Source: an uncultured virus (IMG/VR IMGVR_UViG_3300020219_000015)
Lineage: Duplodnaviria > Heunggongvirae > Uroviricota > Caudoviricetes
Strand: one strand, 5' to 3'
IMG/VR virus record: IMGVR_UViG_3300020219_000015
Length of the DNA: 20,000 nucleotides
The position numbers and the translations under genes are program-made. The notes under the pieces were generated by a model. The model was not told the origin of the DNA. It searched no databases and worked only from the letters and a program-made list of their open reading frames with translations. Shown piece after piece: positions 1,886-17,965 of the stretch. Position 1 is the first letter of the stretch, and the number at the start of each line of letters is the position of its first letter.

Positions 1886-1887
1886 AC

Positions 1888-2913
1888 TTATACTGCATTA
1901 TTATGTAAAAATCTTGGACTTGAACCTGGTGAATAACTAGAAAACATATCATAGTATTTAGAGTACATAGCTTTTCTATTGGTTTCCCACATCTTAGCCA
2001 TTTCAGAGAAGTTAGGAGTATTGACAACTGTGAGAGCATTATTTCTTGCTCCTCTAAGTTTTTGTTGAACTAGTCCTAATGCCTTTTCTACAGACTCATC
2101 TTCCATTAATAGATTTTCTAGTATCCTTTCTTTCAGAGCATATTCATAATATTCATTCATATATGGATGATCCGGAACTAATATATTACCTGATTCATCT
2201 TCTAGTGCTCCTTCATAGTTGATATATACTTTTCCACACATCTCATTTCTAGTAGAGTGACTATTAGAATGATTTAGATTATGATTTAGGCCATCATTAA
2301 ACCATATGAATCCATTTTTTATAAATGCTTCATCTCTACACATCCAGTTAAGATTAGGACACTCACAATTTATATCATGTGAATTCTTAAATCTTATTGG
2401 ATACATCATATTATAGCTCCTTGAAATAGTATTTATTACTTGAACTAATTGAAAGCCGGTAGTATTTTTACCACAGCTATCTGTACATCTTGTAAGACAA
2501 ATAGGAATGGTGGTATTAGGAGTTAATGTTGGTGTACATGCATCAATAACTACATCAGTACATGGATTAGGTTCTATTGGATCTTGGTAAGTGGGAATAA
2601 TATTTTTAATAGGAACTTCTTGTATGTTAGTTCCCTGGCCTGGTATAAAAGTCTCTGTAAAACTACCACATAATAGAGCAAAGTTCATGACCCTGAAATC
2701 CTCTGGAAGTCTTGCTTTTCCATTTACTATATCAAGAACTGTGTTCTTAACCATGTTAATCCTAAGACCAAGATCATAGTTACATCTAAGAGCAACTTTA
2801 ATCAACTGCTGAGGTTCTATTTTTCCTTCTAGAGAATATGTTTTCATATCAACTCTAACACTCTCAAAGAGAGAATCAAATGTCTGATACTTTAATGTGT
2901 AGTTGAAGTTCAT
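1888..2913 (-). CDS. Tail tubular / ring protein (crAss-like Ttub), 341 aa, with a Cys-rich central insertion
   Basis: ORF track. N-terminal helical part and C-terminal 'KVYINYEGALEDESGNILVPD...EYYEYALKERILE' resemble crAss-like tubular/ring proteins; lies directly upstream of the muzzle gene. Confidence 0.7.
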   Translation of the reverse strand: MNFNYTLKYQTFDSLFESVRVDMKTYSLEGKIEPQQLIKVALRCNYDLGLRINMVKNTVLDIVNGKARLPEDFRVMNFALLCGSFTETFIPGQGTNIQEVPIKNIIPTYQDPIEPNPCTDVVIDACTPTLTPNTTIPICLTRCTDSCGKNTTGFQLVQVINTISRSYNMMYPIRFKNSHDINCECPNLNWMCRDEAFIKNGFIWFNDGLNHNLNHSNSHSTRNEMCGKVYINYEGALEDESGNILVPDHPYMNEYYEYALKERILENLLMEDESVEKALGLVQQKLRGARNNALTVVNTPNFSEMAKMWETNRKAMYSKYYDMFSSYSPGSSPRFLHNNAV

Positions 2914-2917
2914 AGTC

Positions 2918-3607
2918 TTATGTTCTTATAGTACCTTGTTTATCATCTGTATTAGGTTCAGAAGGTATTTGCATTACTCCAAATAGATCTTTTATTACAG
3001 CCTGCTCTATTTCTGCAAAGAGGAAATCCGGAATTGGAGTGACCTGATCTTGTCTTTGAGTACATGCTGAATCTCCTGATCCATCAGCACATGTGAAAGT
3101 TACTAGATCATTTTCAAATATACCATCTACCATTACCGACTCCCAGTCTAAATTTGGAAAATATAAATACTCATTTATATACCAATAGTATTGTCTCTTG
3201 TTATACTTAAAGGTCGATGTCTTAGTCATTGAAGTATAAGTAGAAGGAGCTGTAGGAAATACTTCTTCCGATCCATCTATAGAACTGATTGTTCTAAATA
3301 GTGGCCCAAATCTAGCTTCCATTATTCCTGGAACTTTCTCTTTACTTCTCTTAAATAAACAATCAGATGTCACTCCTCCACAACAAGCTTCTATTCTATC
3401 TATTTCTATTAATTCCATACATGGAATAGTCCTGAATAGAGTACTGAATTTTATGAGTTGGTTCCTGCCTTCTTCTCTTTTAATATATAATTTAGCCCAT
3501 TTAATTATAAGACTATATATAAATCTATCTGTAAGAAAGGAATCTTCTTTTACAGCCTTAACTGAGTTTCTTACCCGGGATGTAGTAGCTCCTATTGTTG
3601 TTGCCAT
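2918..3607 (-). CDS. Probable tail ring / neck structural protein, 229 aa
   Basis: ORF track. Abuts the upstream gene (TAAATG). The 'YYWYINEYLYFPN...DGIFEN...PIPDFLFAEIEQAVIKDL' pattern and synteny match crAss-like ring proteins. Confidence 0.6.
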   Translation of the reverse strand: MATTIGATTSRVRNSVKAVKEDSFLTDRFIYSLIIKWAKLYIKREEGRNQLIKFSTLFRTIPCMELIEIDRIEACCGGVTSDCLFKRSKEKVPGIMEARFGPLFRTISSIDGSEEVFPTAPSTYTSMTKTSTFKYNKRQYYWYINEYLYFPNLDWESVMVDGIFENDLVTFTCADGSGDSACTQRQDQVTPIPDFLFAEIEQAVIKDLFGVMQIPSEPNTDDKQGTIRT

Positions 3608-4198
3608 TTAATCAAAATTAAATTCATCATAATTAGTAAGATCAATTTCCTTAACTGGAATTACAAAATCTATATAAGGCTTGTTAGAAAAAAGTCTGGA
3701 TGCTTTAACTCCACTTGCAAGATGAACAAATTTCTTGTAGTCTTTTCTAAACTCTTTTGAGCCTGCTCTCTTGAACTGTCTTACTGCAAAGAAGGACCAG
3801 AGTTCTCTATTTCTAAATTTGTATTTGGTTCCATAATTAGTATATATAATTTTTGCTAAATGATTATCACACTCCCAGTTCTTATGAAGAACTTTATGGC
3901 CGGCTTCTTCTGATCTTTTATAATCAATAACTTCTCTCTTGCTTGGATTACATCCTACTATAATAATATTTCCTAATCCTTCTCTTAATTTTACTCCATC
4001 TCTTAGTTCAACTATACTTTTCCAAATATTTTCATTATCCTTTTTTATAACTTTATTAAATATTTTATAATCTACATCTATATACTGAGGATACTTTTCA
4101 GTAAATTGTTTAAATAACTCTTTAGATAATGAGTAGATATGTTTGTCTCTGAATCTGGGACCTTTAATATTTGGTTTTTTAACTACTGTAGAAGTCAT
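3608..4198 (-). CDS. Basic IHF/HU-like DNA-binding protein (crAss-like IHF subunit homologue), 196 aa
   Basis: Lys/Arg-rich; 'IVELRDGVKLREGLGNIIIVG' resembles the HU/IHF beta-arm entry (V.L.GLG.F). crAss-like phages carry an IHF-like gene before Ttub/Tstab. Confidence 0.55.
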   Translation of the reverse strand: MTSTVVKKPNIKGPRFRDKHIYSLSKELFKQFTEKYPQYIDVDYKIFNKVIKKDNENIWKSIVELRDGVKLREGLGNIIIVGCNPSKREVIDYKRSEEAGHKVLHKNWECDNHLAKIIYTNYGTKYKFRNRELWSFFAVRQFKRAGSKEFRKDYKKFVHLASGVKASRLFSNKPYIDFVIPVKEIDLTNYDEFNFD

Positions 4199-4261
4199 GG
4201 ATAGTTATAATTTACGAAAATTATCTGATATTAAAAAGTTTTACTAAGTTAATAAATAATA

Positions 4262-4300
4262 TGAAAGAGAAAACCCCGATTTTCACCGGGGTCTCTCTTT
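4262..4300 (-). terminator. Intrinsic terminator (possibly bidirectional) after the 174-aa gene
   Basis: Minus-strand RNA AAAGAGAGACCCCGGU-GAAA-AUCGGGGUUUUCUCUUU: GC-rich stem (CCCCG/CGGGG), GNRA tetraloop, U-rich tail. Confidence 0.8.
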
Positions 4301-4301
4301 G

Positions 4302-4337
4302 AAAAAGCTACTGACTAAACCAACAAGTAGCAACTTT
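4302..4337 (-). other. Second stem-loop between the stop codon and the terminator; loop UGUUGGUUUAGUC
   Basis: GCTACT (4307-4312) and AGTAGC (4326-4331) are exact reverse complements around a 13-nt loop; followed by U5 on the minus strand. Confidence 0.55.
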
Positions 4338-4862
4338 TTAAGCCAATGTCTCAACTAATAATGTCACTGAATAACAATTACCTACAGTACATGTAGCATT
4401 AACTCTTATATGATATTCTTCATTTGGTATAAGTCCGGTAATAGTATCTGTGGTAGCTGTTGGACCAAGTAAAGGTCTTAATATCCATACACCACTAGAT
4501 GCTAGTTTGTACTCAACTTGATAGGTTAATACATCTGTTACTAAAGCCCACCCTGGAGTAATGCTAGTATTTGTGATAGATATAATAGAAAGGGTATTCA
4601 CAGAAGCACATGTTCCACCTGTAACACATCCCGGGTTAGTAGCCAATAGTATAAGTTTTTGAATAATAGAATTGAGTCTGTCTCCGGTATTAATAGGAAC
4701 ATCTACAATACTAGGGCCTGAGTATATGACACAATTAGCATCAAAGAATTCAGAACAAGGTTCAGGATTAGGACAGCTTGCATCTCCTGGACAAGGAAAT
4801 GTAGGAACTGTAGTAAAAGCCTGATCTTTACAGCCACATGGGGCTTTATGTCCACAATTCAT
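4338..4862 (-). CDS. Cys-rich structural protein with C-terminal fibronectin type III domain, 174 aa
   Basis: 11 Cys. FN3 hallmarks: 'ITNTSITPGW...YQVEYKL...W...TITGLIPNEEYHIRVNATC'. Confidence 0.75.
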   Translation of the reverse strand: MNCGHKAPCGCKDQAFTTVPTFPCPGDASCPNPEPCSEFFDANCVIYSGPSIVDVPINTGDRLNSIIQKLILLATNPGCVTGGTCASVNTLSIISITNTSITPGWALVTDVLTYQVEYKLASSGVWILRPLLGPTATTDTITGLIPNEEYHIRVNATCTVGNCYSVTLLVETLA

Positions 4863-4889: not shown

Positions 4890-5303
4890 TTATATAGATA
4901 TGTCTTTTGTATACAAAGTTTCTATATCTACATTGACAATTATTCCATTTAATACATCTAATAAAGCTAATTCATTTTCTACTCTCTCAATTGATGTTGC
5001 AAAATATGGAGTATCATAGTCTACTAATTCCTCGTTTTGTTTCTTCCATATTTTATCAAGAATATCCTGATTTTGTTTAGTATAAGTCATTACTCCTTTA
5101 TCTGTTAATTTATAAGATTTGTCATCATTTAGTAATGCTAATTCATGTTGTTTATCAGAGAACGTATCTGTATATTCTTTTAATGCTTTCTCAAGTAAAA
5201 CTTCTCCTTTTAAACAAGCATATCCAAAAGGAGATTTGTGATTTTTCCAAATTTGAGCATTAGCTTTTACTATTCTTAATTTTTCTACTGTAAATTGTGC
5301 CAT
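4890..5303 (-). CDS. Hypothetical helical protein, possible fibre-assembly chaperone, 137 aa
   Basis: ORF track; charged and helical; good leader; downstream of a fibre gene. Function inferred from position only. Confidence 0.6.
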   Translation of the reverse strand: MAQFTVEKLRIVKANAQIWKNHKSPFGYACLKGEVLLEKALKEYTDTFSDKQHELALLNDDKSYKLTDKGVMTYTKQNQDILDKIWKKQNEELVDYDTPYFATSIERVENELALLDVLNGIIVNVDIETLYTKDISI

Positions 5304-5341
5304 ATTAGTTTGATTTGTTGGTTTAAATTATACTTAATTAT

Positions 5342-5680
5342 TTAGATCTCAACTATTACATTTGTGCCTGGATTCTCTAATTTAAGTTTATCTGCTACTT
5401 TAAGATATATAGTATAAGGTAACCCTGCTGCTGCAGCTTCTTCTTGGGTTATGTCAACTGTTATACTTGCTAACTTTTCATTAATATTATTTATTGGCCA
5501 TACTTGATCTTTATTAGATTCACAAGCAATAACATTGAGCCACCATTTTAAATCACAAGGAACAGTAAGTCCTCCTGTTTCAATATTATCATAAGCATGT
5601 TGAACAAGTGTACCATAGAGATTTGATACATTGGATCCTCCTATGGAAAGAGACATTTCTGATGTAATTTTTAAGTTCAT
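5342..5680 (-). CDS. Hypothetical protein, possible fibre tip or assembly factor, 112 aa
   Basis: ORF track; immediately downstream of the 847-aa fibre. Function inferred from position only. Confidence 0.6.
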   Translation of the reverse strand: MNLKITSEMSLSIGGSNVSNLYGTLVQHAYDNIETGGLTVPCDLKWWLNVIACESNKDQVWPINNINEKLASITVDITQEEAAAAGLPYTIYLKVADKLKLENPGTNVIVEI

Positions 5681-5714: not shown

Positions 5715-8258
5715 TTAAGCTTTCATACCTACTACATAATCTGCATTTGTAAGAATATTAGCAGCAGTATCTTTATATAATTCACCTGCAGAACGTCCTG
5801 CATTTCCTACTTGAAGTACTGGTGCTATTGCTCCATTACCTTTTATTTCAATCCTAGTTATTAAAGCATTTGCTGTTGAACCTGCTCCTCCTGCACTAGA
5901 AGTTTGAAGAAGTATACTTCCACTTGCAACGTTTCCTGTAGATTGTCCAGATGCTATAATAAAATTAGTTGTAGTGTGATTTGATGCTGGAGTTAATCCT
6001 ATCGTATTGGTTGATGGTATAGCAGATGTACCTTGTAGTTTTGTATCAAACATATCTGTATTTCCAGCCCATCTTCCTGTTCCAAAATAAAAGTTCTTTA
6101 GAATATATCCACTTGCTCCAATAATAGCTTCATAATCTTCAGAGTTTTGTGCATTTGTTCCATATCCTATACAAAGGATTTCACGTAATGATAATACTGG
6201 TGAAGGAGATGTATTTCCACCTAAGCTTATACTTTTAGATGGATTATCCAAACTTTGTCCAGCAGCAAAACCAATTGCTATGTTACTTGAGCCAGTTGAA
6301 ACTGTCGGCAATACATAATCTCCAATACCAATATTATTAGTACCTGTTGACAATGTAAAAAGAACCCTTGTTCCAAAAGCAGCATTTTGACTACCTTCTG
6401 TTATAGCAGATAGTGTTCCTTTACCAAATGCACTATTATTTGTTCCTGATGTTATATTTGTATTTCCAGATAAATAACCACAAAAAAGATTACTTGTCGT
6501 AGTTAATCCATTAGACCATAATACTCTATTATCTGCAATCCAATAACCTAATCTTGAATTTACTGCTCCATCATCTCTTACATAGAAATTGATATTATTA
6601 GAAGCATCTAATATTTTTAGTCCATAAGTAGTTAATGTAGAACCAAGACCTTTTACTCCAAACATTGCATCTATATCTGTACTACTACTAACTCCTATAA
6701 GGAGTCCTGTACCATTATTGATAAGACTTCTTGCACCATTAGCCTGAAAAGCATGGGTAATAGTTCCACCATTTGATCCATACATAAACATGAATGCATC
6801 ATTTGATCCATTGGCTTGTAATTTAAATAAATCAAATCCACCTTGAGTTATACTAACAGCAGAATTACCTGTTGCACCTATATAAAGAGGAAATCCACCA
6901 AGTGTATTAACATCAAATCCAATACCAACAGATCCATATGTATTTGCTGTTAATGGACCAAAGAAAGAACCTTCAACTTTAAGTATATTATCACCTACTG
7001 TTACTCCTGAATAACCAACATTCAATTTTGCAGAAGCTAAAGTAGCACCTTTACCAATAGATAGCCCAGATGTGCTTAAATTCATCCATGCTGTTCCTGT
7101 ACCTGCATCACCAGTATTTGTATATCCCCAAGCAAAACTTCTTGCTGAATTTTGATCTACATAATTATCAAATGAGTTGGCAGCAAAAATATCTAAACCA
7201 GTTCCCCACCAAACTCCTCCAGCATTATATGAAAAGATGCTGCCAGTTAGTGAACCTCTTAATATATTTCTATCAATATAAATAGCTGCATTATTGGCAG
7301 TATTCCTTACTCCTATGTTTGCTCCAAAATTAACCTCAAAATCTCCAGAAGAATTCTTTCCCACCATAAATATACCTTGACCAGATCCTCCTGCAATATT
7401 GGTTACTCTTAAAGAAGCTGTATTATCAATATTATTTAATATATCAAATTGAGCTAGTGGATTAGTTATATTTATTCCTGTATATCCGGAACCTAATATA
7501 TTTACTCTAGCTGTATTATTAGTTAATATAGAAAGATTAAAGTTATCTGTAAGTCCTAGTGTAGCATTACCTCCAAAAGCATTACCCCCATTTATATATC
7601 CAGTTGTTGGAGTAATATAAGTAGGAGTAAAATATTCTAAAGCAGTAGCTCCTGCATTTACTCTTAGTAAATCATTTGCTAATCCTAAAGTACTTAATCC
7701 TGTTCCTCCGTTAGCAAATGGAAGAATTCCTGATACATGGGTTGTTAATCCTATTTTTCCCCATAAAGGCAATGTACCTACTCCTCCTGATATTAGGGCA
7801 TTACCTATAGCTATATCAGGTATTTTACTAAGAGTAGTAGTTGTATCAGCTGCTAGTATATCTCCTATAGCATATATAGTCTGACCAGTTCCTCCAAAGG
7901 TGGCTCCTATAGGAATCCCTTGCCATGTACCAGTAGTTATTGTACCCAATGTAGTAATACTAGTACTGCCTATAACTGCTGTAATAAAAGTCCAATTTCC
8001 AGCTAATACTCCGTTTGCTCTATATATAGCATCCGTATCTAACTGAATTCCTATCTGACCTATAAAATCTGGAATAGAAGAAACTCTTGCTACTGCATCA
8101 GTAAAAACTTTATTACCTGGAGTTGATACAAAATTTGCTATATCCTGTAAAGTAGATCGTTTGGCTGTAGTTGTCCCAAAAGGGACTATAGGAAAAATAT
8201 CTCCTCCTGAAAGAGGAGGAGCTGGATCAAATTGGTCTACTCTTTTATTTATTGCCAT
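5715..8258 (-). CDS. Long Gly/Thr/Asn-rich trimeric fibre / adhesin, 847 aa, with N-terminal KRVDQF module
   Basis: Shaft-like 'GATFGGTG' and 'LPFANGGTG' motifs; 'G[IL]G' beta-repeats; four 14-aa YadA-head-like repeats (NSAFG/NAAFG/NIGIG/NIAIG); only 2 Cys. Confidence 0.75.
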   Translation of the reverse strand: MAINKRVDQFDPAPPLSGGDIFPIVPFGTTTAKRSTLQDIANFVSTPGNKVFTDAVARVSSIPDFIGQIGIQLDTDAIYRANGVLAGNWTFITAVIGSTSITTLGTITTGTWQGIPIGATFGGTGQTIYAIGDILAADTTTTLSKIPDIAIGNALISGGVGTLPLWGKIGLTTHVSGILPFANGGTGLSTLGLANDLLRVNAGATALEYFTPTYITPTTGYINGGNAFGGNATLGLTDNFNLSILTNNTARVNILGSGYTGINITNPLAQFDILNNIDNTASLRVTNIAGGSGQGIFMVGKNSSGDFEVNFGANIGVRNTANNAAIYIDRNILRGSLTGSIFSYNAGGVWWGTGLDIFAANSFDNYVDQNSARSFAWGYTNTGDAGTGTAWMNLSTSGLSIGKGATLASAKLNVGYSGVTVGDNILKVEGSFFGPLTANTYGSVGIGFDVNTLGGFPLYIGATGNSAVSITQGGFDLFKLQANGSNDAFMFMYGSNGGTITHAFQANGARSLINNGTGLLIGVSSSTDIDAMFGVKGLGSTLTTYGLKILDASNNINFYVRDDGAVNSRLGYWIADNRVLWSNGLTTTSNLFCGYLSGNTNITSGTNNSAFGKGTLSAITEGSQNAAFGTRVLFTLSTGTNNIGIGDYVLPTVSTGSSNIAIGFAAGQSLDNPSKSISLGGNTSPSPVLSLREILCIGYGTNAQNSEDYEAIIGASGYILKNFYFGTGRWAGNTDMFDTKLQGTSAIPSTNTIGLTPASNHTTTNFIIASGQSTGNVASGSILLQTSSAGGAGSTANALITRIEIKGNGAIAPVLQVGNAGRSAGELYKDTAANILTNADYVVGMKA

Positions 8259-8260
8259 GA

Positions 8261-8803
8261 TTATACAGGAATTATTTTATATTTTAAATAAATTAATATA
8301 TCACTATTTCCTGCTGTAGGATTTCCAGTAAAGACATATGCTTGAACTTTTTTATTTTCTTCAAGCTGTGTTGCATTAGAATGAGCTGCAGCCATACTAA
8401 CACCAATAGATGGTATCCAGATACAAGTTCCTGCATTTGCTAATCTCCCAGTAAATCCATTTATTACAGTTAAACTAGTATCATATACTAATCCTAAAGT
8501 TGTATTTGTTGCGTATGGAGTTCCTCCATAAGTTCTTATCTTAAAGATAGCTACTGTAACTAAATTAGCAAAACCAATTCCAGGACTTGGAATTAAGTCT
8601 ATAGGAGTTGAATTTAAAGTAAGAACATCTGCAGAAAGGATAGTAGTCTCTACTGTAAACTCATCATTTACTGCATCTTTGATGTCTTGTAAAGTAGTTT
8701 GTAAAGCAGCAGTTCCAGCTCCTTGAACTATAGGAAGAATATCTGTTAGAGCAAGTGGTGTGGTTGCTAATCCAAATTGGTCTACTCTTTTGTCTACTGC
8801 CAT
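8261..8803 (-). CDS. Short appendage / decoration protein, 180 aa: KRVDQF module plus a ~130-aa beta domain
   Basis: ORF track; first 43 aa are 34/43 identical to the 454-aa protein; the rest is beta-strand-like. Confidence 0.7.
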   Translation of the reverse strand: MAVDKRVDQFGLATTPLALTDILPIVQGAGTAALQTTLQDIKDAVNDEFTVETTILSADVLTLNSTPIDLIPSPGIGFANLVTVAIFKIRTYGGTPYATNTTLGLVYDTSLTVINGFTGRLANAGTCIWIPSIGVSMAAAHSNATQLEENKKVQAYVFTGNPTAGNSDILIYLKYKIIPV

Positions 8804-8822
8804 GATTGATTTAGTTTTATAA

Positions 8823-10187
8823 TTATACTACTGCTGCATCTACTACAAGAGTTCCTACTAATATAGTAGTATTTCCATTGATAGCCAAGTTAGCTACAGA
8901 TGTTCCATATACATGGACATTTTCAGCTGTAACACTATTTATAGAATTAGCTCCTGCTCCTGCAATAAGAGTGGTAGAGTTTAATATTAAAGTTGAAGCA
9001 AAATCTTTTCTAATTGCTTCTGTTGCTGCAGCTGGTGTTATAACTCTACAAGAGTTTAGTATTAGTACTCCACTACCAAAATTAATAACTGGTACAAATA
9101 GTGTACTTGTTATAGTTCCTCCATTGACAATTATTTGTCCTCCTACAGCTGCTCCACTATTATTTACAGCAACTGCTCCTGCAGCACTACTACTTATATC
9201 TCCATTAAATACACATCTTCCTGTAGATCCTAATTGATAACCATGTGCTGAAGCATTTGATCCTGATGTAGTATTTCCATTAACTGTAAGATTTCCGGAA
9301 CCTGCTGTAGTACCACATATACCAAGTGTATTTGTACTATTTCCATTAAGAATGGTTGATCCTGCAGAGATCACTATATTGGCAGCATTACTAGATGCAT
9401 TGATATTACCATTCATAGTTATAGTTCCTCCGGTATTGGTAATTGCTTGACCTGCTGAATTTGTGATATTTCCATTTAAAGTAGCAGTTCCTGCAGATAT
9501 TAAAATACCTCCACTAGTACTAACTATATTTCCATTGGAAACTAGTATACCTGCTTGTACTTGTATAGGTGTTCCATTAGTAGTATTTACAGTACCGTAA
9601 GTTGTTAGTGTACCGTTAGTAAGAAGAATAGTATTAAGAAGGTTGGAATTAAAATTATTAGCATATACTGTAACTACACTTCCTGCATTCTGAAGTCTAA
9701 TAGCATGGCCATTTGTTCCTGCTGTAGTTCTTTGTATAGTGTGGGCATTATATATAACACTATTACAAGCTATATTATTATCATCAATAGCAGCTAGTGC
9801 TCCTGCTGCCAGATCTATAGATCCTCCATTGAGGTCCCAATCAATAAAATTACCTAGAACTATGCCTTCTGCAGAATTAAAGTTTTTTACACTAATACTT
9901 ATCCTTTTGGTAGCACTAGGAGTTAATGCTGCTGCTGCAATTGAAGCTGCTGCTTTGGTTAAAAAAGGCAAATCTGCCCTTTCAGCCAGACCAGTACTAT
10001 CTGATCCAAAACTTTCATCTACAAATACAGTATTTGAAACAGGTAATTGTAATGCTCCATCTCTTATATCTGCAAGAGTACATTGTAAAGCAGCAGTACC
10101 TGGTCCTTGAACTACAGGGAAAATATCTGTTAAAGCTAGTGGTACTACAGCTAAGTTAAATTGATCGACTCTTTTATCTACTGCCAT
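8823..10187 (-). CDS. Probable beta-helix (pectin-lyase-like fold) spike, 454 aa, with N-terminal KRVDQF module
   Basis: 'TVFVDESFGSDSTG...PFLT' matches the cap motif that typically precedes right-handed beta-helices; followed by ~21-aa G/N/I-rich rungs ending in '[LM]NGNI'. Confidence 0.7.
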   Translation of the reverse strand: MAVDKRVDQFNLAVVPLALTDIFPVVQGPGTAALQCTLADIRDGALQLPVSNTVFVDESFGSDSTGLAERADLPFLTKAAASIAAAALTPSATKRISISVKNFNSAEGIVLGNFIDWDLNGGSIDLAAGALAAIDDNNIACNSVIYNAHTIQRTTAGTNGHAIRLQNAGSVVTVYANNFNSNLLNTILLTNGTLTTYGTVNTTNGTPIQVQAGILVSNGNIVSTSGGILISAGTATLNGNITNSAGQAITNTGGTITMNGNINASSNAANIVISAGSTILNGNSTNTLGICGTTAGSGNLTVNGNTTSGSNASAHGYQLGSTGRCVFNGDISSSAAGAVAVNNSGAAVGGQIIVNGGTITSTLFVPVINFGSGVLILNSCRVITPAAATEAIRKDFASTLILNSTTLIAGAGANSINSVTAENVHVYGTSVANLAINGNTTILVGTLVVDAAVV

Positions 10188-10207
10188 TTTATTTAGTTTT
10201 TAAATTA

Positions 10208-11773
10208 TTATCCTAAAAGCCATTTTGATCCATCAAGTTGTAAGAAGTATCCTCTGGCCGGGTCTCCTGCTGTACCTGTCCATAACCAGAATGATCCCGG
10301 TAATGTAGATACTGTTCCAAAAGGACAGAAGATATCAACTCCATCTACAGTCACTACTGCTCTTATTTTATATGTAGTTCCTGAAGTCACACCTGCACCA
10401 CTAAATGTTCCACCTACTGGGCCTATTGCAGGATTAATGAAGTTCATAGAAGTTACCAAAGTAACTCCTGCTGCATCATACAACTGAATAGTATATGTTA
10501 TAGGTGTTCCTACTATATTATTAAATGTGAATGGAATGGTTGTCTCAGTAGGAGTAGTAGTTATAGTAGGACAAGCTGTAGTATTAACTATAGTATAATT
10601 AATCTCTCTCTCACAGGTTGTATTAGTTGAAGGATTAGTCCAGCATCCAAATAGCTCAAGATTGAAATTACAAGCAAGGCTTAAAGGTGTTGCAGAAATA
10701 TCTATTGAGTATCCTGGTATGTTATTAACATATGTTAATACCGGTATATTAGTAATTAACTGTGTTCCAAAACAATCTGTAATTATTAACTCATTTCCTG
10801 CAGAGAAGCAATCTATAAATCCTGCAGGTACTGAGCCGGTAAAGAATAGTGTAATTATTGTACCTGAGAAAGTAGCTGTCATATTAATTACTAAAGCCTC
10901 ACATCCTGTAGGACAACATGTTTCTTGAATATTTTTAACTGCAGCTCTTAAATCACATATAGTGATCCACATGTTATTGATTGAGTCTGCTAGATCATTA
11001 TAATTTACTTGAGTGATCCATCCTGAGAGACTACCCATATTTACTCCAGGAAGTCCTAGTGACTGCTCTAGATCTAGACCGGCACATTGTTTCTGTATAG
11101 ATAGAAATATATCATTAGGTGTTCCTGTTGCCGATCTGAGCTCACAGAACTGTTGTTCTAAAGCTGCAACTATTGTAGATATTGGTACTGGATCAGAAGG
11201 TGGTGGAGTGATTACACAAACCGGAAACATTGTTACTTCTGGTTGTGGAACATCACTGCAGCAGTTTAATTCGATATAAGTTAACCTTGCTTCATGATTA
11301 GCAAGAGTCTGTTGTATAGTAGTAATAGTCTGTAGTATAGTGCAGATCTTATTTCCAATTGCAGTAACATAGTCTGTTAACTGCATTGTAGTGATCTGGT
11401 CTCCTAATTGATTTATAAAATAGAAACAAGGAGCAATATTAACTACACAATCAGGACATCCTGTAGGTGTAGGAGGAGCTTCTCCATTACAGCACTGTTC
11501 TAGTGTACATATCTTATCTAGAACAAATTGTAAAAGATCATGAATATTTTCCGGGGTAGGACAAATTGGGTTAAAACAGGTAAGATCAAAAGTATTAATA
11601 TCTAATTGATCAACTAATGTACAGAGCTCCTGGGCTAACTTAGCTACTACATCACTTACAGAATCCCCTTTACATAGTGTTATACAAGGAATATCAGGTC
11701 CTTGCCAGATAACACAGTTAGAGGATATTGGATTACACCCCTCTTGATTTGTATTTGATTGTATTGGAAGCAT
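10208..11773 (-). CDS. Cys-rich scaffold / tail protein, ~521 aa (start revised from 11959 to 11773): coiled-coil segments, FN3/Ig-like C-terminal domains, C-terminal FLQxDGxxWLL tag
   Basis: The 11959 start overlaps the upstream gene by over 120 nt. MLPIQSNTNQEGC at 11773 follows a promoter-like motif. 30 Cys by manual count; heptad segment 'ILQTITTIQQTLANHEARLTYIE'; FN3-like 'GVTSGTTYKIRAVV'. Confidence 0.8.
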   Translation of the reverse strand: MLPIQSNTNQEGCNPISSNCVIWQGPDIPCITLCKGDSVSDVVAKLAQELCTLVDQLDINTFDLTCFNPICPTPENIHDLLQFVLDKICTLEQCCNGEAPPTPTGCPDCVVNIAPCFYFINQLGDQITTMQLTDYVTAIGNKICTILQTITTIQQTLANHEARLTYIELNCCSDVPQPEVTMFPVCVITPPPSDPVPISTIVAALEQQFCELRSATGTPNDIFLSIQKQCAGLDLEQSLGLPGVNMGSLSGWITQVNYNDLADSINNMWITICDLRAAVKNIQETCCPTGCEALVINMTATFSGTIITLFFTGSVPAGFIDCFSAGNELIITDCFGTQLITNIPVLTYVNNIPGYSIDISATPLSLACNFNLELFGCWTNPSTNTTCEREINYTIVNTTACPTITTTPTETTIPFTFNNIVGTPITYTIQLYDAAGVTLVTSMNFINPAIGPVGGTFSGAGVTSGTTYKIRAVVTVDGVDIFCPFGTVSTLPGSFWLWTGTAGDPARGYFLQLDGSKWLLG

Positions 11774-11790
11774 GTCTCTATGTGTGTTAA

Positions 11791-11823
11791 TATAATATAC
11801 AATTAATTTTTTTAATCTCCAAA
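11791..11823 (-). promoter_or_regulatory. Putative promoter TTTGGA-N18-TATATTATA, copy 1
   Basis: TCCAAA at 11818-11823 and TATAATATA at 11791-11799 (+ strand), intergenic; same boxes and spacing as 18008-18040. Confidence 0.6.
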
Positions 11824-11831
11824 ATAAATAT

Positions 11832-14372
11832 CTAAAGTAGCCAAAAAGTTCCATCATCTTGTAAAAAGAAAGCTTCAGTAGAAGTACCACCATCACCTTC
11901 ATATAACCATGCATCTGTAACAGCCGGGATTGGAGGTATTGGACAATCTGATAATTCACTACATATCATTGTACCACATAGGGTTTCTTCATTATAAATT
12001 AAACATCCCTCTATCTCTCCTTGAGCTGTAGTATTCACTCTCTGAAGTAATATACAAATACCTGTTTCATCAAAAGTGATTATCTCTAAATTAACTGAAG
12101 ATATAGATATAGATGCTGTAAGCAGTGCTTGTAGTTGATCTATAGTAGAAGTTGTAGATAATGTAACCGGAGTATTAATTGCTGCACCTCCTATTGTGAA
12201 TGCAAAAATACTTGAAATAGTATCTTCCGTATTAAACTCAGCAACACATAACTTAGTATAGCACATCTCTCCATTAAATACATGTGCAGGAGCTGGGCAT
12301 GGAAACATTGAATTACTTGCTGAACAAGTAGAACATGGATTACAAGTATTACACTTGTTTACTTGACAACATGTAGAAATAGTATTGCATGGATTAGGAA
12401 AACATGCATTGATTTGTTCAGGACAATAATTGGGATCTACTAGTTTACTTAAGTCAGATAATTGCTTTCTTAACCATAGTTGAGGTAAATGAATACCTTC
12501 ACAACAAGTACCTACTCCATATTTTAGCTTTTTAACAACCTTATAGAATCCTTCACCAAATCTCTTGTTATCATTAATATCACATTCTCTCTCATCTATC
12601 TTATAAAAGATCCTTACTGGATCAGGTATAACTTTAGCTGGAGGAGGAATAGGTATTATAACTTTTGGTATACAGCATTCACAATCTGCATAGATCCCGG
12701 GATTATATGAAGTAATAACTACTGCATCATCACATGTACCACTTATAGATACTAACCAACATAATATAGGATCTATCTCAGGTCCTCCTTCAATAACTAG
12801 CTCATTAACAATCTTACCTACTATTTCAGCCAGGTTTGATGTAGTTACAATAGGATCTTCTACACCAGTGCAATTGGTTAATAAATAACATATAGGGGGA
12901 TTACACTCTAAACAATCTGCAAAGACTGTAATTACAGGATCTACTATTACTCCAATAGTATTATCACAATTATTTGCTAATGATACAGTCCAACAGATAT
13001 CTCCAAATGATTCTATCTTAATAGTCTGCCCTAGATATATTTCAAAGTCATTAGATACTGTAATAGGTATATGAGAATCTGTATCAGAACAGTCTGTTAA
13101 TATATAACAAGTTGGATTACATGTATCACAATCTGAAAAACTAGTAATAGTATATCCTCCAGGAAGTCCTATAGATCCAACACATGATCCGGCCAATGTT
13201 ACTTGCCAACAAATATCCCCATATGAAGATACTTTAATTGTCTGACCTACATATGCACTTAGATCATTAGATATAACCTGAGTAGGCTCAACACTTTCAC
13301 AATCAGTTATCAAATAACATATTGGAGGTGCACATGTTTCACAACTAGTGAATGAAGTTATTACTGCTCCTGGTAATGGATTTGGACCTGGAAAATCTAC
13401 ATCATTACATGAAATCTGAGTTACTGTCCAGCATGTATCCGGATCTAAACTAGTTCCTGATACTTTAATTGCTCCTATTCCTATATAGGGTGCTACTACA
13501 TCATTATTTGTTATTACTATATTTTGAGGGTTAGCACAATCTATTAATTGATAACAACATACTATAGGTGCTGACTCTATTTTTACACACTGGTAGTCTT
13601 GACCAGGACATAATGATAGAATATATCCGGGGGCACACTGGTATCCTTGTATCTCAGCTAGTTCAAAATAACTGGATACTCTACTCATACTAGAATATAT
13701 AGTTACTGCAGCTAATTGAACTGGTGAAACATAAGATAATAATTGAGCTAATGTTGCATTATAGATCTCTGCTGCAAATCCTGCAGTAGCTCCTCCTCTA
13801 CTTAATCCTTCAAAAGAGAGGATATTGGTTCCGGCCTGAAGTGTAATTGGAAATACATGCCAATACTGATATGGAAATTGTGTAGAATAAGTTGTAGTTT
13901 GAACAAATACTTGACCATTTAACTTAATTCTAAATTCATTTTCTGCAGAAATACCTATATAGTAAGTGGTCTCTTGTAGTAATTCTAAACAGAATGTAAA
14001 TCCAATCCACTCATTTACATGTTGAACTGGATTTTGATCATCACAAATCCATACACCGGCATTATTTAATCTACCATTATTTACATTGCCATTGCCCCAT
14101 AATACTGTAGGACCACTAGAATTAGTTACAAGAAGTGTATTATTTATTCCATCTAGAAATCTATCTGGAGTTATAGCTGACGTTATGGGTAATGGTCTAC
14201 TATTAGTTGATTCATAAAATAGAGCTCCATTTAGGTTATACTTTGGTTGTCTAATTAAACTACATACCTGATTAATAGGATATCCTGAAAGATTTCCAAT
14301 AGTAATTTTCTGGCAGCCAGAACCATCTGGAGTAATCTGATAACCTGGAGGACAATTACATTCTAGAGCCAT
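11832..14372 (-). CDS. Large Cys-rich multidomain virion protein, 846 aa: EGF-like motif, PA14/jelly-roll-like domain, four 6-Cys repeats, C-terminal FLQxDGxxWLL tag
   Basis: About 55 Cys by manual count; 'CNCPPGYQITPDGSGC'; 'TTYYIGISAENEFRIKLNG...PITLQAGTNILSFEG'; internal repeats. Confidence 0.8.
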   Translation of the reverse strand: MALECNCPPGYQITPDGSGCQKITIGNLSGYPINQVCSLIRQPKYNLNGALFYESTNSRPLPITSAITPDRFLDGINNTLLVTNSSGPTVLWGNGNVNNGRLNNAGVWICDDQNPVQHVNEWIGFTFCLELLQETTYYIGISAENEFRIKLNGQVFVQTTTYSTQFPYQYWHVFPITLQAGTNILSFEGLSRGGATAGFAAEIYNATLAQLLSYVSPVQLAAVTIYSSMSRVSSYFELAEIQGYQCAPGYILSLCPGQDYQCVKIESAPIVCCYQLIDCANPQNIVITNNDVVAPYIGIGAIKVSGTSLDPDTCWTVTQISCNDVDFPGPNPLPGAVITSFTSCETCAPPICYLITDCESVEPTQVISNDLSAYVGQTIKVSSYGDICWQVTLAGSCVGSIGLPGGYTITSFSDCDTCNPTCYILTDCSDTDSHIPITVSNDFEIYLGQTIKIESFGDICWTVSLANNCDNTIGVIVDPVITVFADCLECNPPICYLLTNCTGVEDPIVTTSNLAEIVGKIVNELVIEGGPEIDPILCWLVSISGTCDDAVVITSYNPGIYADCECCIPKVIIPIPPPAKVIPDPVRIFYKIDERECDINDNKRFGEGFYKVVKKLKYGVGTCCEGIHLPQLWLRKQLSDLSKLVDPNYCPEQINACFPNPCNTISTCCQVNKCNTCNPCSTCSASNSMFPCPAPAHVFNGEMCYTKLCVAEFNTEDTISSIFAFTIGGAAINTPVTLSTTSTIDQLQALLTASISISSVNLEIITFDETGICILLQRVNTTAQGEIEGCLIYNEETLCGTMICSELSDCPIPPIPAVTDAWLYEGDGGTSTEAFFLQDDGTFWLL
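12672..13556 (-). repeat. Four tandem ~70-80-aa protein repeats: CYx[LI]x[DN]C...G...CWxV...C...[FY]xxCxxC
   Basis: Units begin CYQLIDC, CYLITDC, CYILTDC and CYLLTNC; each contains CWxV and ends in CxxC; six Cys are conserved per unit. Confidence 0.9.
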
Positions 14373-14387
14373 TACTATTTATACTAT

Positions 14388-14570
14388 TTACAATTGAGAT
14401 AGACTTTGATTATTTTTTGGTAATTGTACTGGTTTTGGTTGTACTTTAGGTTGTGTTAGTTTCTGGTTATATGCACTAACACAACTTGTACAACACTGTT
14501 GTTTATCTAAAGCTACTCTTACGTGGCAGCCACATGATAGTGACGTTCCACAATTATTACATTTTGCCAT
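14388..14570 (-). CDS. Small Cys-rich, putatively metal-binding protein, 60 aa
   Basis: CxxC-x5-CGC-x10-CCxxC (7 Cys); good leader sequence; fits the gap in the operon. Confidence 0.75.
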   Translation of the reverse strand: MAKCNNCGTSLSCGCHVRVALDKQQCCTSCVSAYNQKLTQPKVQPKPVQLPKNNQSLSQL

Positions 14571-14617: not shown

Positions 14618-15208
14618 CTATAAATTTCCAATACAGGCTCTGGATATATTTGATCTAGCTATTTTTAATGTATCTGCTGCTTCTTTTATACAATTCCATT
14701 CTTTTATTAATAGATTATCTTTTGTATATTGATAAATCTTTTTCATTTGTTTCTTCCCTGGATTGATATCTGATAACATTCTTTGTCTATTAGATTCATC
14801 TACTCCATTTAGTTTGTTTATATTAGCAACTCTTCTAGCTATAGAGGACTCTTTCATAGGATTTCTATCTGATTTCATCCTTTCTATAATTGCTTTATTA
14901 TTTTGTCTTCCTGTTCCTCCATCTCCACCAATAGTTCCGTTAGTTAATTTACAGAAACTTTTATAATGTTTTATTAATTCTATTTCACAAAAATTTAGAT
15001 TTGATTCAGAACCTGTATATAATATTTTAAAACTAGGTTTTATATTATTAATTTTCAATAATCTTATCCATTTCTGTTTATGAGTACCTAGATATTTTTC
15101 TGTTAAATGTTTACTTAATCTAGACTTAGGAAATAAAGTTTTTCCAATGTATCTAATTTGATCATTTCTAGGATCAACTAATGCATATATATGTCCTTGT
15201 CTTTCCAT
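14618..15208 (-). CDS. Free-standing GIY-YIG homing endonuclease with C-terminal NUMOD1-like domain (start revised to ATG 15208, ~196 aa)
   Basis: 'HIYALVDPRNDQIRYIGKT...RLSKH...E...LTNGTIGGDG' is a GIY-YIG domain; 'KIYQYTKDNLLIKEWNCIKEAA...NISRAC' is NUMOD1-like. The ATG is 1 nt after the upstream stop; the 15229 start is an overlapping GTG. Confidence 0.88.
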   Translation of the reverse strand: MERQGHIYALVDPRNDQIRYIGKTLFPKSRLSKHLTEKYLGTHKQKWIRLLKINNIKPSFKILYTGSESNLNFCEIELIKHYKSFCKLTNGTIGGDGGTGRQNNKAIIERMKSDRNPMKESSIARRVANINKLNGVDESNRQRMLSDINPGKKQMKKIYQYTKDNLLIKEWNCIKEAADTLKIARSNISRACIGNL

Positions 15209-15209
15209 A

Positions 15210-15767
15210 TTAACAATTTCCACACCCACATAAACAACTTAATTTATTTAGTCTCTTTAATGCATATAAATAAATATCCATTCCATGTTTTGGTGAATGA
15301 CAGTATTCTACTTTTGCTTTTGCTGCATCAAATAATGTTCTTATGAACTGAAGTTCTCTAATGAACTTATCTATCTCTGCAGTAGGATCACAACCTCTTA
15401 TATCAAGACAACATAATACATTACTGTATTTTTTTAGTGCTGATGTTATTCTTAAATGATTATATTCTACAAAGACTATATCATTGGGAGAAACACTATA
15501 TCTTGCAATATATACTCCATCTGGTAGGGTATTGAATGTAGTAGTGCAATTAGTTGTTTGAATACCTAAAGCACATGCTGTGATATTCTCTATAAATCCG
15601 GGTTCTATATCTGGTACTATAGAAGCTTCCCAAAATCCTGGACTTGTTATTTCTAACTTAGGACACTCAAGAGGAATAGTAGGATCATAAACTGAAGTAT
15701 CTATAACTCTTATAATGCAAGAGTTCAGTACATCAGGTATTTCTAGACTTAGGACATGTTTTGCCAT
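15210..15767 (-). CDS. Structural protein, probably tail-hub-like (crAss gene 73-like), 185 aa
   Basis: Ig-like N-terminal half ('LEITSPG...LPDGVYIARYSV') plus helical C-terminal half; follows the putative auxiliary capsid gene as in crAss-like synteny; 12 Cys, ends in SCLCGCGNC. Confidence 0.55.
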   Translation of the reverse strand: MAKHVLSLEIPDVLNSCIIRVIDTSVYDPTIPLECPKLEITSPGFWEASIVPDIEPGFIENITACALGIQTTNCTTTFNTLPDGVYIARYSVSPNDIVFVEYNHLRITSALKKYSNVLCCLDIRGCDPTAEIDKFIRELQFIRTLFDAAKAKVEYCHSPKHGMDIYLYALKRLNKLSCLCGCGNC

Positions 15768-15796
15768 AGGTTAAATGTATAAATAAAGTTAATTAA

Positions 15797-15837
15797 AAAT
15801 AAAAAAGGGAAGGAAGTTTTTGTCCTCCTTCCCTTTT
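15797..15837 (-). terminator. Intrinsic terminator after the 702-aa gene
   Basis: Minus-strand RNA GGGAAGGAGG-ACAAAAA-CUUCCUUCCC-UUUUUUAUUUU; perfect GGGAAGGA/TCCTTCCC stem (15807-15814 with 15826-15833). Confidence 0.85.
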
Positions 15838-15856
15838 CTTTACCAATTCATACAAT

Positions 15857-17965
15857 TTATCCTGCTTCTACTACAGTGATTGAGTAAACAACATTTGTCT
15901 GACATCCATTAGTATCAACTACTGATACTGTGAACTCATATGTTCCGGTAGTAGTTGGTGTTCCTGTGATATCACCTGTTGTAGCACCTAGTACTAAACC
16001 TGGAGGTAAAGCACCAGCTGTAACTTCAAAGCTATAAGGAGCTGTTCCACCTGATACTGCAATTGGAGTGAATACATATGGTGTACCTACTGTTCCACCT
16101 GATACTGCACCAGCTGTTGGTACAAAGGTAAGAATAGCACAAGCACCAGGACAAGCTGCCCCACATGCATATGTTTCAAGTGCTATTGAACAATTACAAG
16201 CTGTTAACCAGGTTGCCATTGTAGACTCAAATGTAGCACTAACTGCAGTAGTTATGATCTCTAATAGATATTGATCATTATCAAATACTCCAGTTGGGTT
16301 ATTAAACCTTGGAACACTATGTAAGATAAAGTATCTATAGTATTGAGCTGATCTAATAATTGCACTAGATATATCATATCCTTGAGTTACTTCTCTAATA
16401 CGAAGATCTTCTCCAGTATAGAAGTAATTCTGCATATAGCTTTCTGATAAGATCAAGTCTCTTAAAACTTGTTCACCAAAGCCCATACCTTGTCTTGGAG
16501 GACATTGCTCAACTATACAAAGACCAGTGAATGCACATACATCTCCTGTTTCATCTACTTCAGAAGGGAGGATTTTAACTGGTTCTTTCTCAAAATAATC
16601 AGTTGGATAGAAAGTACAATCTCCAAATTTAGTGTCAATAAAGGCACCCATAATTTTCATACCTGCACAAGCACCATCAATATGGCCTGGAGATACGTAA
16701 TTATCCCATGTTGGAGTCACTGTTGCAGTAACTGTAAGTACTAATCCTGTTCCTGGTGATAACAAAGGAGAAGTTAAAGTATCTCCTACTGCATAACTTA
16801 AACCTGGATTATTAAATACTACTGCAGTTACTACTCCACCGGCAACTGTTACTGTTGCTACAGCTCCAACACCTGAACCAGAACTTTGGAATGTTACATT
16901 AGTAAATGTACCATTGTTATATCCCGAACCAGCATTAGTGATAGTTGCTGCACCAACACCTGGACTTAAATCAAATCCACCAGTGTCACCAACTTTAATA
17001 TCTTGGCCTGGAGCATACCATCCAACACCATTTTCATCATAGATTACTATATTCAAGAATGGACCTACAATTCTATTTGCAAGAAGTTCATTAGCCCATC
17101 CAATAAATACTAAAGTAGAATCAACTGGTACCGGAGTTCCACAACCTGCAGGGCAACATCCAGTGTAAGATGCAGTAGTCCAGTATCCATTACGAGATAA
17201 GTATCTCAATTCTGGTGAACCTTTAACATCTACTCTTAAGAAGTATGTTTCATCACATAAAAACTCTTTGCAGCATGTAACATCAGTTACTGCTGTGATA
17301 GCTGCTACAGTTAGTACTGCTGCAGTACCAGGAGTAAAAGTAATACCAGTTACACCAAGTACATTACCTACATCATAGAAACTACCTGGAGCAGTAATAG
17401 CAACTGCAGTGATCGCACCACCAGCTACTGTTACTGTTGCAAGGGCACCGTTACCAACTGCACCAGTTAATACTATGTTAGTATAAGTACCATTAGTGTA
17501 TCCTGTTCCAGCACCAGTAATAGTTACTGAGGCTACTCCACCACCATTAGTATAAGGAGTATTACCTACATGCACCACATTTTGGTTAGGTGTACAAGGA
17601 TCTACTCTATAAAATCTGTTTACGTATTTAGGATTGATCATTTTAGATTTGGTTGATTCCTGGTATCCACCATGGAAAGGACCAATCTTGTCATGTTGAT
17701 ATAAAGCAGTACTTGCTAGAATCAACGGTGCTCCAGTTGTAATCTGGGCATCAGCAGCAACTACTGATAAATAAGTTTTTGGATCAAAGAGTCCAAATAC
17801 ACCTAATCCTAATTGGTAAGGTGATGCTCTATTGATTAATTGTACACTAGGTACTCCGGATGTTACCAAGAATCCTGTGGTTACTCCAGAGTGGGATCCA
17901 TCAGCTGCCTGAGTAGGATGTGTCCCAATAAAGAGTTTTGCAAATGCATGATTGAAATAAGCCAT
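15857..17965 (-). CDS. Abundant structural protein, probably auxiliary capsid protein (crAss gene 74-like), 702 aa, with two inserted beta domains and a C-terminal He_PIG-type Ig domain
   Basis: Synteny (after the ring gene, before the hub-like gene); own promoter-like motif and terminator; C-terminal 'GTVGTPY...SGGTAPYSF...GALPPGL.L...TG.ITGTPT..GTY.FTV.V.D' is a putative Ig domain. Confidence 0.6.
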   Translation of the reverse strand: MAYFNHAFAKLFIGTHPTQAADGSHSGVTTGFLVTSGVPSVQLINRASPYQLGLGVFGLFDPKTYLSVVAADAQITTGAPLILASTALYQHDKIGPFHGGYQESTKSKMINPKYVNRFYRVDPCTPNQNVVHVGNTPYTNGGGVASVTITGAGTGYTNGTYTNIVLTGAVGNGALATVTVAGGAITAVAITAPGSFYDVGNVLGVTGITFTPGTAAVLTVAAITAVTDVTCCKEFLCDETYFLRVDVKGSPELRYLSRNGYWTTASYTGCCPAGCGTPVPVDSTLVFIGWANELLANRIVGPFLNIVIYDENGVGWYAPGQDIKVGDTGGFDLSPGVGAATITNAGSGYNNGTFTNVTFQSSGSGVGAVATVTVAGGVVTAVVFNNPGLSYAVGDTLTSPLLSPGTGLVLTVTATVTPTWDNYVSPGHIDGACAGMKIMGAFIDTKFGDCTFYPTDYFEKEPVKILPSEVDETGDVCAFTGLCIVEQCPPRQGMGFGEQVLRDLILSESYMQNYFYTGEDLRIREVTQGYDISSAIIRSAQYYRYFILHSVPRFNNPTGVFDNDQYLLEIITTAVSATFESTMATWLTACNCSIALETYACGAACPGACAILTFVPTAGAVSGGTVGTPYVFTPIAVSGGTAPYSFEVTAGALPPGLVLGATTGDITGTPTTTGTYEFTVSVVDTNGCQTNVVYSITVVEAG
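16718..17539 (-). repeat. Two dispersed ~82-aa protein repeats (17294-17539 and 16718-16960)
   Basis: GVASVTITGAGTGYTNGTYTN...ATVTVAGGAITAV...PG..Y.VG versus GVGAATITNAGSGYNNGTFTN...ATVTVAGGVVTAV...PG..Y.VG. Confidence 0.9.

Follow-up and report, generated by a model that had tools for sequence, protein, structure and literature searches.

A shared C-terminal peptide and a shared N-terminal module as a candidate docking pair for add-on fibres in an environmental crAss-like phage

The DNA analysed here is a stretch of 20,000 nucleotides (nt) from an uncultured virus of the Caudoviricetes (IMG/VR record IMGVR_UViG_3300020219_000015), to which we refer as the window. Searches against Pfam and PHROGs identify it as a crAss-like virion-gene block with ring proteins R1 and R2 and the muzzle protein, and every long open reading frame (ORF) called in it lies on the minus strand. 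Within this block, two Cys-rich proteins of 846 and 521 amino acids (aa) end in a similar short peptide, the tag, and three fibre-type proteins encoded by the next genes begin with a similar segment of about 43 aa, the module. The features concerned are as follows.

4890..5680, minus strand: two small genes (112 and 137 aa), the last part of an inserted cassette
5715..8258, minus strand: putative 847-aa add-on fibre, module at 8130-8258 (from the N-terminal alignment)
8261..8803, minus strand: putative 180-aa add-on protein, module at 8675-8803 (from the N-terminal alignment)
8823..10187, minus strand: putative 454-aa add-on fibre or spike, module at 10059-10187 (from the N-terminal alignment)
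10208..11773, minus strand: 521-aa Cys-rich resident virion protein, bearing tag 2 (71 distinct full-length homologues)
10211..10297, minus strand: C-terminal tag 2, last 29 aa, ...FWLWTGTAG...YFLQLDGSKWLLG (past the end of homologues)
11832..14372, minus strand: 846-aa Cys-rich resident virion protein, bearing tag 1 (homologues in the syntenic slot)
11835..11912, minus strand: C-terminal tag 1, last 26 aa, ...WLYEGDGG...FFLQDDGTFWLL (from the alignment to tag 2)

The 846-aa and 521-aa proteins align at their extreme C-termini alone, where 12 of 25 residues are identical (BLASTP E 4e-5; the next segment has E 0.59). Among the fibre-type proteins, the 454-aa protein has 34 of 43 N-terminal residues in common with the 180-aa protein (E 2e-20) and 27 of 57 with the 847-aa protein (E 7e-9). 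Beyond the module no further alignment among the three was found at E < 0.3, and 22 of the 54 columns of the aligned N-termini are invariant. In a six-frame motif scan of the window the tag was found twice and the module three times, with no further copies of either. Between the end of tag 2 and the first module gene there are 20 nt; tag 1 belongs to the next gene upstream of the one with tag 2. The two tags have many DNA differences with the key residues kept, and the module copies are likewise diverged at the DNA level; the copies are therefore not fresh duplicates. A preliminary description of the locus, made from its sequence alone, had claimed that two otherwise unrelated Cys-rich proteins share a C-terminal peptide (here about 25-29 aa) and that the next three, otherwise unrelated genes share an N-terminal module of about 43 aa, and both claims stand on these alignments. 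The range that it gave, 5715-11909, covers no more than the final ~25 codons of the 846-aa gene, the full extent of which reaches 14372.

To place this arrangement among its relatives, the window was compared with 90 related loci, namely 10 IMG/VR loci found with the 521-aa protein as query and 80 metagenome loci found with the family alignment. Together these contain 71 distinct full-length homologues of the 521-aa protein. The gene order in the relatives is major capsid protein, a 185-aa protein, a variable Cys-rich protein (257-1113 aa), a ~500-aa protein, a ~180-aa protein with Cys-rich and FN3 features, a ~195-aa protein, R2, R1 and muzzle. The window has five additional genes, for proteins of 454, 180, 847, 112 and 137 aa, between the ~500-aa and the Cys/FN3 genes, and this five-gene cassette is clearly an insertion relative to the related loci. 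In an alignment of the 521-aa protein with eight homologues, six of the seven complete ones stop within one residue of residue 492; the window protein extends 29 residues past this point. One homologue in this alignment (L001) has a short unrelated tail, and the ORF of another (L002) is cut by the contig end. The C-terminal extension on both resident Cys-rich proteins occurs in the window only, by comparison to the 90 loci. Comparison of these sequences thus supports the view that the tags are true C-terminal add-ons, and that the relatives have neither the tag nor the fibre cassette. A module gene is present in one of the 90 loci, L062, a contig of 3.5 kb. The ORF directly upstream of it ends in a Trp-rich tail that contains LLWTDGG, a weak tag-like match, and the 521-aa protein's homologue in L062 is untagged.

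The start of the 521-aa protein is an ATG that matches the starts of its homologues; the longest ORF, from a GTG, would encode 583 aa. In an AlphaFold2 model based on 64 sequences (predicted local distance difference test, pLDDT, 82.5) the N-terminal half is helical, and residues 290-495 form two FN3-like sandwiches. Fold searches with this model returned generic FN3 matches alone, to residues 290-495, and barely tested the N-terminal half. In the monomer model tag 2 has a pLDDT below 50, as expected for a peptide that folds on binding. Neither the 846-aa nor the 521-aa protein matched a Pfam or PHROG family at E values up to 0.01. In the same syntenic slot of L001-L010 the homologues of the 846-aa protein range from 257 to 1113 aa, and none aligns with it beyond residue 650. 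About four tandem Cys-rich repeats of ~70 aa (CY.LTDC...ICW.V...C) can be made out by eye in the 846-aa protein, at residues ~350-560. In L065 (9989-12997) the homologue of the 521-aa protein is ~1000 aa long and may be a fusion with the downstream gene.

As to the cassette proteins, no Pfam or PHROG match was obtained for the 847-aa protein, nor any homologue in the 90 related loci. The 454-aa protein has a repetitive Gly/Asn/Thr-rich body and no homologue in the 90 related loci; a search of protein representatives identified its relatives P0009, P0010 and P0022. The 180-aa protein is related to P0003, P0031, P0037 and L062:225-815, and its model, obtained from a four-sequence alignment, has a pLDDT of 32. 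No homologue of the 112-aa and 137-aa proteins was found in the 90 loci; jelly-roll-like features for the former and DUF1617-like viral clusters for the latter are atlas leads only. With no Pfam or PHROG match and with so low a pLDDT for the 180-aa model, the earlier labels of the three module-bearing proteins as a beta-helix spike, a small beta protein and an adhesin fibre are not confirmed.

The tag in the window resembles the C-terminal LLLEDG..LLQEDGxxILL peptide of an uncurated family, for which there is no entry in Pfam. In a MAFFT alignment the window tags align well, with the same spacing as the tags of L094, L097 and L099. We scored the 1576 C-termini of the ORFs of the window and the 90 related loci with an ungapped position-specific scoring matrix (PSSM) made from 32 distinct non-window terminal 13-mers. 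The tag of the 521-aa protein ranked first at 20.6 bits, the next non-window C-terminus reached 4.0 bits, and the tag of the 846-aa protein ranked third at 3.2 bits. Because of its first rank at 20.6 bits, we treat the 521-aa tag as a supported, probable member of the LLxEDG tag family, and the 846-aa tag would be a member mainly through its similarity to the 521-aa tag. A DNA pattern for the Trp-type tag gave six chance matches, all outside ORFs.

Two reciprocal sets of IMG/VR loci allowed us to examine where tags lie with respect to modules: 80 loci selected by module, and 80 chosen by tag similarity alone. The background of the tag scan was 2 spurious matches in 1.12 Mb of crAss-like loci. 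In the module-selected loci, 15 ORFs carry a C-terminal double unit, xFLLLEDG..LLQEDGxxILL, and 14 of the 15 stop immediately before a module ORF. When mini-ORFs are counted, a tag is present in 20 of the 80 loci and in 18 of the 75 with a called module ORF. A first count in the tag-selected loci found 73 ORFs with a C-terminal tag, with a module ORF within 300 nt downstream in 47, elsewhere in the ~8-kb locus in 20, and absent in 5, of which two have a module-like start by eye, below threshold; the remaining one is at a contig end. A slightly wider pattern gives 74 tag ORFs, 48 of them with a module-start ORF within 300 nt downstream; module ORFs make up 70 of the 818 ORFs in these loci, a baseline of 8.6%. 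Often the stop of the tag ORF and the start of the module ORF overlap by one base, an arrangement typical of coupled translation.

The tag carriers fall into 16 clusters, 11 of which are adjacent to a module, and the tag is the sole part conserved among them. They are otherwise unrelated: proteins of 44-62 aa, proteins of 100-220 aa of no recognised family, proteins of 906 and 1174 aa, and a lambda FII-like head-tail connector (Pfam Phage_attach, 1.9e-12). Tag and module lie at free C- and N-terminal ends, respectively, in all but six examined loci; in six tag-selected loci the tag motif is at the start or in the middle of a mini-protein of 57-89 aa and not at the C terminus. In phage DSL-LC05 (L261:3018-6079), a compact cluster near the portal gene encodes proteins of 100 aa, 52 aa (a tag mini-protein), 170 aa and 205 aa (a module protein) and a tailspike. 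Many IMG/VR loci likewise contain the 100-aa and ~165-aa proteins.

Many small fibre proteins begin with a MADKKISQL...LPIVQGG head, and the module is of this kind; its commoner form reads MADKKISQLTAATTPLAGTEVLPIVQGG.T.K.T..DIA. A profile of the three window modules, run against 1.84 billion representatives, gave 38 matches, nearly all beginning at residues 1-5 of small proteins with differing bodies, and the three window proteins score 75-84 bits with a joint profile. No Pfam family represents the module; among the families matched by the bodies behind it are the fibre-tip families H_lectin, Gly_rich_2 and Phage_tail_C. The module is N-terminal in 119 of 119 homologues of a module protein and in 91 of 97 ORFs. 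In IMG/VR at least 573 stretches match the module. The earlier statement that both motifs are common in environmental phages is borne out, and neither is in Pfam. No further relatives of the window's own module or tag were found in a phage GenBank set or in a genome contig collection, and IMG/VR searches with the window module profile (A1) and with P0022 likewise returned none. A search with profile A5 recovered one unrelated small contig, L093.

Several module proteins depart from this layout. In P0021, P0013 and P0034 the module is repeated three or four times in tandem, and in P0021 a short VLVESG-like unit, which by eye resembles one tag unit, precedes each copy. A module position behind an extra N-terminal domain was seen in cultured Flavobacterium siphophages; in Flavobacterium phage snork6-1 (L260:3686-5200), for example, a 504-aa 'minor tail protein' has it at about residues 105-140.

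Among PDB sequences, the module family profiles have a single relevant match, to residues 24-56 of the crAss001 tail fibre gp22 (E 1.5e-4 with profile A6 and 0.026 with profile A4). It is also the sole module match among 27 crAss001 virion-block proteins. The three-sequence profile made from the window alone (A1) does not match gp22, and a link of the window module to gp22 would run through the wider family profiles. The matched region of gp22 falls outside its modelled residues 1-26, and the window fibres begin directly with the module, without the ~23 leading residues of gp22.

Based on these observations, we propose that a crAss-like phage acquired a five-gene cassette with three extra fibre-type proteins and that, at the same time, two resident Cys-rich surface proteins gained a C-terminal peptide of ~29 residues. 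This tag, which consists of two short units of a hydrophobic strand followed by a D/G turn and may be unstructured alone, would be a docking peptide on proteins that are already part of the virion, and its partner would be the module of ~43 residues at the N terminus of the add-on fibres. End-to-end assembly of tag and module would equip the phage with branched receptor-binding appendages. The two are probably a docking pair because they are encoded back to back in many other phages; the strongest support comes from their being the sole conserved parts of unrelated neighbouring genes, always in the same order. Physical contact between tag and module, its stoichiometry and the virion site of the resident proteins are inferred. 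A mixing of fibres on the scaffolds, with any of the three docking on either one and heterogeneous virions as the outcome, as the preliminary description suggested, would be a further, hypothetical step. We consider a docking system of add-on (branched) fibres the best overall explanation of the sequence data and give it about an even chance of being correct. An extended form of this proposal, which we put forward tentatively and would sooner bet against, is that the LLxEDG tag and the KISQL module form a portable, self-sufficient peptide-to-peptide docking pair. Unrelated podo-, sipho- and crAss-like lineages would then hang interchangeable fibres on any tagged virion protein, free 'tag-only' proteins of 44-62 aa would act as loose adaptors, and in the window phage three appendages would compete for two kinds of tagged site.

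A number of results weigh against a docking pair. The link is one-sided: a tag is nearly always accompanied by a module, but most modules have no tag beside them. None lies within about 8 kb in 57 of 75 module-bearing loci, and L093 likewise has a module and no tag. The preliminary description had looked to co-occurrence, adjacency and fusion across phage genomes as marks of a cognate pair. Adjacency holds from the side of the tags (48 of 74, against the 8.6% baseline) but not from that of the modules, and no natural tag-module fusion was found among 119 module homologues or in a search with one 166-aa tag carrier, which is itself weak evidence. Within the phage family of the window, tag and cassette were in essence gained together a single time, with L062 as a weak further case. 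A hidden Markov model (HMM) of 17 non-window tags reports neither window tag, so that their membership rests on the ungapped PSSM, which is weak for the 846-aa protein (3.2 bits). Three related loci (L058, L077 and L079) share a different C-terminal peptide, GGFxISLDGLxAFIx, with no module within the locus. Finally, gp22, the module family's one structural match, docks on the tail hub and not on a tag, and no tag was found on any crAss001 virion protein. The GGFxISLDGLxAFIx peptide itself is borne by two neighbouring virion proteins in L077:1954-4946 and in L079:9992-12915, and by one protein in L058:11736-13118.

Several of these results would also be expected if the module anchored the fibres directly to a conserved virion site, such as the tail hub, a ring or a capsid pocket, as crAss001 gp22 and gp21 do, with the tag binding or assisting there without touching the module. 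Tag and module would then be neighbours because of a common third partner. The module family matches an N-proximal part of gp22, beside its hub-docking residues 1-26, most module loci are without a tag, and the family of the 174-aa Cys/FN3 protein weakly matches the tail-hub protein gp38 (E 0.011). In addition, crAss001 head fibres are described as docking in hexon pockets by short N-terminal segments (PMC10172136). Such a shared site leaves unexplained that the tag is the sole conserved part of 16 carrier families and stands directly before the module gene, and the ~23 additional residues at the N terminus with which gp22 docks on its hub are missing from the window module. We regard a shared site as unlikely, though worth serious attention.

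A role of the tag for its carrier alone appears improbable to us. Here the tag would be a self-association element, a beta-hairpin trimerisation or registry cap like the T4 fibritin foldon, unrelated to the fibres. Its place at the extreme C terminus, its strand-turn-strand pattern, in which an aromatic residue follows a D-G turn, and its lack of structure in the monomer model would all suit such a cap. In a comparison with the T4 record, the resemblance to the foldon is not above chance: BLASTP gave E 1.3 or no alignment with the fibritin C terminus, and shuffled sequences reach scores as good in 899 of 2000 and 406 of 2000 cases. Searches of PDB sequences with each tag and with tag profiles gave no relevant match, proteins of 44-62 aa that are little more than a tag are hard to see as self-folding caps, and self-association does not account for adjacency to the module. 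More improbable still, in our view, is that the gene-end/gene-start pair serves mainly as a recombination linker for swapping fibre cassettes between phages, with no protein contact. The cassette is clearly inserted, both pieces lie exactly at gene boundaries, and phages are well known for mosaic exchange at conserved boundaries. The conservation, however, is at the protein level, with tag and module DNA diverged and the key residues kept, and the tag-only mini-proteins argue for a function of the protein.

The remainder of the window places the tagged genes and the cassette in their virion-gene context, as listed here.

2-1885, minus strand: muzzle protein, cut by the window end (Pfam crAss_MUZ, 49.4 bits, cut-off 27, 2.8e-13)
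1888-2913, minus strand: ring protein R1 (Pfam CrAss_Ring_1, 23.2 bits, 5.2e-5, below the cut-off of 27)
2918-3607, minus strand: ring protein R2 (Pfam CrAss_Ring_2, 86.9 bits, cut-off 27, 1.9e-24)
2..4862, minus strand: conserved downstream context, comprising a 174-aa Cys-rich/FN3 protein, a 196-aa protein, R2, R1 and muzzle
14388-14570, minus strand: 60-aa ORF upstream of the 846-aa gene, kept in 29 related sequences
14618-15229, minus strand: GIY-YIG/NUMOD1 homing endonuclease (Pfam/PHROG)
15210..17965, minus strand: conserved upstream context, comprising a 702-aa major capsid protein and a 185-aa Cys-rich protein
15857-17965, minus strand: 702-aa capsid protein with a He_PIG domain (Pfam/PHROG)
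19751-19999, minus strand: endonuclease VII gene at the window edge (Pfam/PHROG)

R2, R1 and muzzle in series, a Crassvirales-type feature, are present in the window according to Pfam and family HMMs, and the window represents a block of virion genes from an environmental crAss-like phage. Family HMMs connect R2 with crAss001 gp40 (3.3e-11), R1 with gp43 (1.5e-7), the 196-aa protein with the IHF-like gp42 (9e-4) and a 234-aa protein with the rings R3/R4 (0.003), in addition to the weak match of the 174-aa Cys/FN3 protein to gp38 (0.011). The N terminus of crAss001 gp21 was tried as a relative of the tag and rejected (HMM E 0.02 among 27 proteins; scores as good in 161 of 2000 and 83 of 2000 shuffles). 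By eye, residues 18-34 of gp21 (L092), in the capsid-binding N terminus of this trimeric head fibre, look tag-like (VWLYKGT..YFNNGEW).

The 60-aa ORF is conserved in 29 related sequences and is therefore probably a real small gene of the virion block. The GIY-YIG/NUMOD1 endonuclease gene lies between the 185-aa and 60-aa genes, overlaps the end of the former and has no counterpart in L001-L010; homing-endonuclease genes in the window number two in all, and a DUF5856 protein is also encoded (Pfam/PHROG). The capsid protein has 702 aa, whereas those of the relatives have 425-560 aa. Two inserted segments of ~85 aa match tail-fibre and baseplate PHROGs, and a He_PIG Ig-like domain is at the C terminus; because of these segments and this domain the capsid is probably decorated.

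If tag and module bind, they would make up a very small natural docking pair of about 25 aa and about 43 aa, widespread in environmental phages and absent from Pfam. As far as our literature searches reached, no prior description of this pair was found in print. The pair would account for the way in which phages attach additional receptor-binding proteins to unrelated parts of the virion, and would help to annotate many 'hypothetical' small fibre genes and mini-ORFs. It could also provide a compact handle for phage-fibre swapping in phage-host systems of the laboratory, alongside the branching-domain/peptide pair of Klebsiella phages. For environmental crAss-like phages without recognisable tail-fibre genes in the virion block, it would be a first hint of how they extend their host-recognition apparatus.

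End-to-end joints and adaptors between fibres are known from T4 (gp34-gp37), G7C (gp66/gp63.1), CBA120 (TSP1-4) and SP6/K1-5 (the adaptor protein). In such joints the C-terminal end of the proximal component holds the N-terminal end of the distal fibre, and several receptor-binding proteins are carried per particle; the joints use folded domains specific to each system. To our knowledge, none of them is a portable peptide pair common to unrelated carriers. The T4 fibritin foldon is a short beta-hairpin element with a D-G turn at the extreme C terminus of a fibrous virion protein, as the tag may be, but it is not linked to a downstream partner gene and its sequence is no closer to the tag than chance would allow.

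From the same virus order, gp22 of crAss001 offers a comparison based on structures (PDB 7qoj, 7qol and 8ckb). Its residues 1-26 are reported to sit in the THA2-THB tail hub, and gp22 to carry further fibres (PMC10172136). Docking of a trimeric fibre by a short N-terminal segment would be a likeness, as would the match of the module family to gp22 residues 26-56. By contrast, the docking residues 1-26 of gp22 have no equivalent in the window fibres, and its socket is the THA2-THB hub and not a tag.

The closest functional parallel is found in KP32, K11 and KP34, podophages of Klebsiella, in which a branching domain of the receptor-binding protein RBP1 was shown to interact with a conserved docking peptide of RBP2 (PMC13352976). 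The principle that a secondary fibre docks by a short conserved N-terminal peptide is thus already established for these phages. As proposed for the window, a secondary fibre of the KP32 type joins an anchored virion protein through such a peptide, appendages with unrelated bodies share it, and the receptor repertoire is widened. The two differ in that the KP32-type socket is a folded branching domain in RBP1, whereas the candidate socket in the window is a C-terminal peptide of ~25 aa that sits on unrelated proteins, even on mini-proteins of 44 aa. The window virus is crAss-like and those that carry the KP32-type system are T7-like; binding in the KP32 type is experimental, whereas for the window a pair is proposed from sequence. 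Pfam and PHROG scans of the window proteins revealed no relation to the KP32-type proteins. For the T4 gp10-like branching domain of the KP32-type primary RBP, the 846-aa and 521-aa proteins gave no family match at E up to 0.01, and the fold searches barely reached the N-terminal half of the latter. What would be new relative to known branched fibres is a socket that is itself a short terminal peptide, portable between carriers, in a crAss-like phage.

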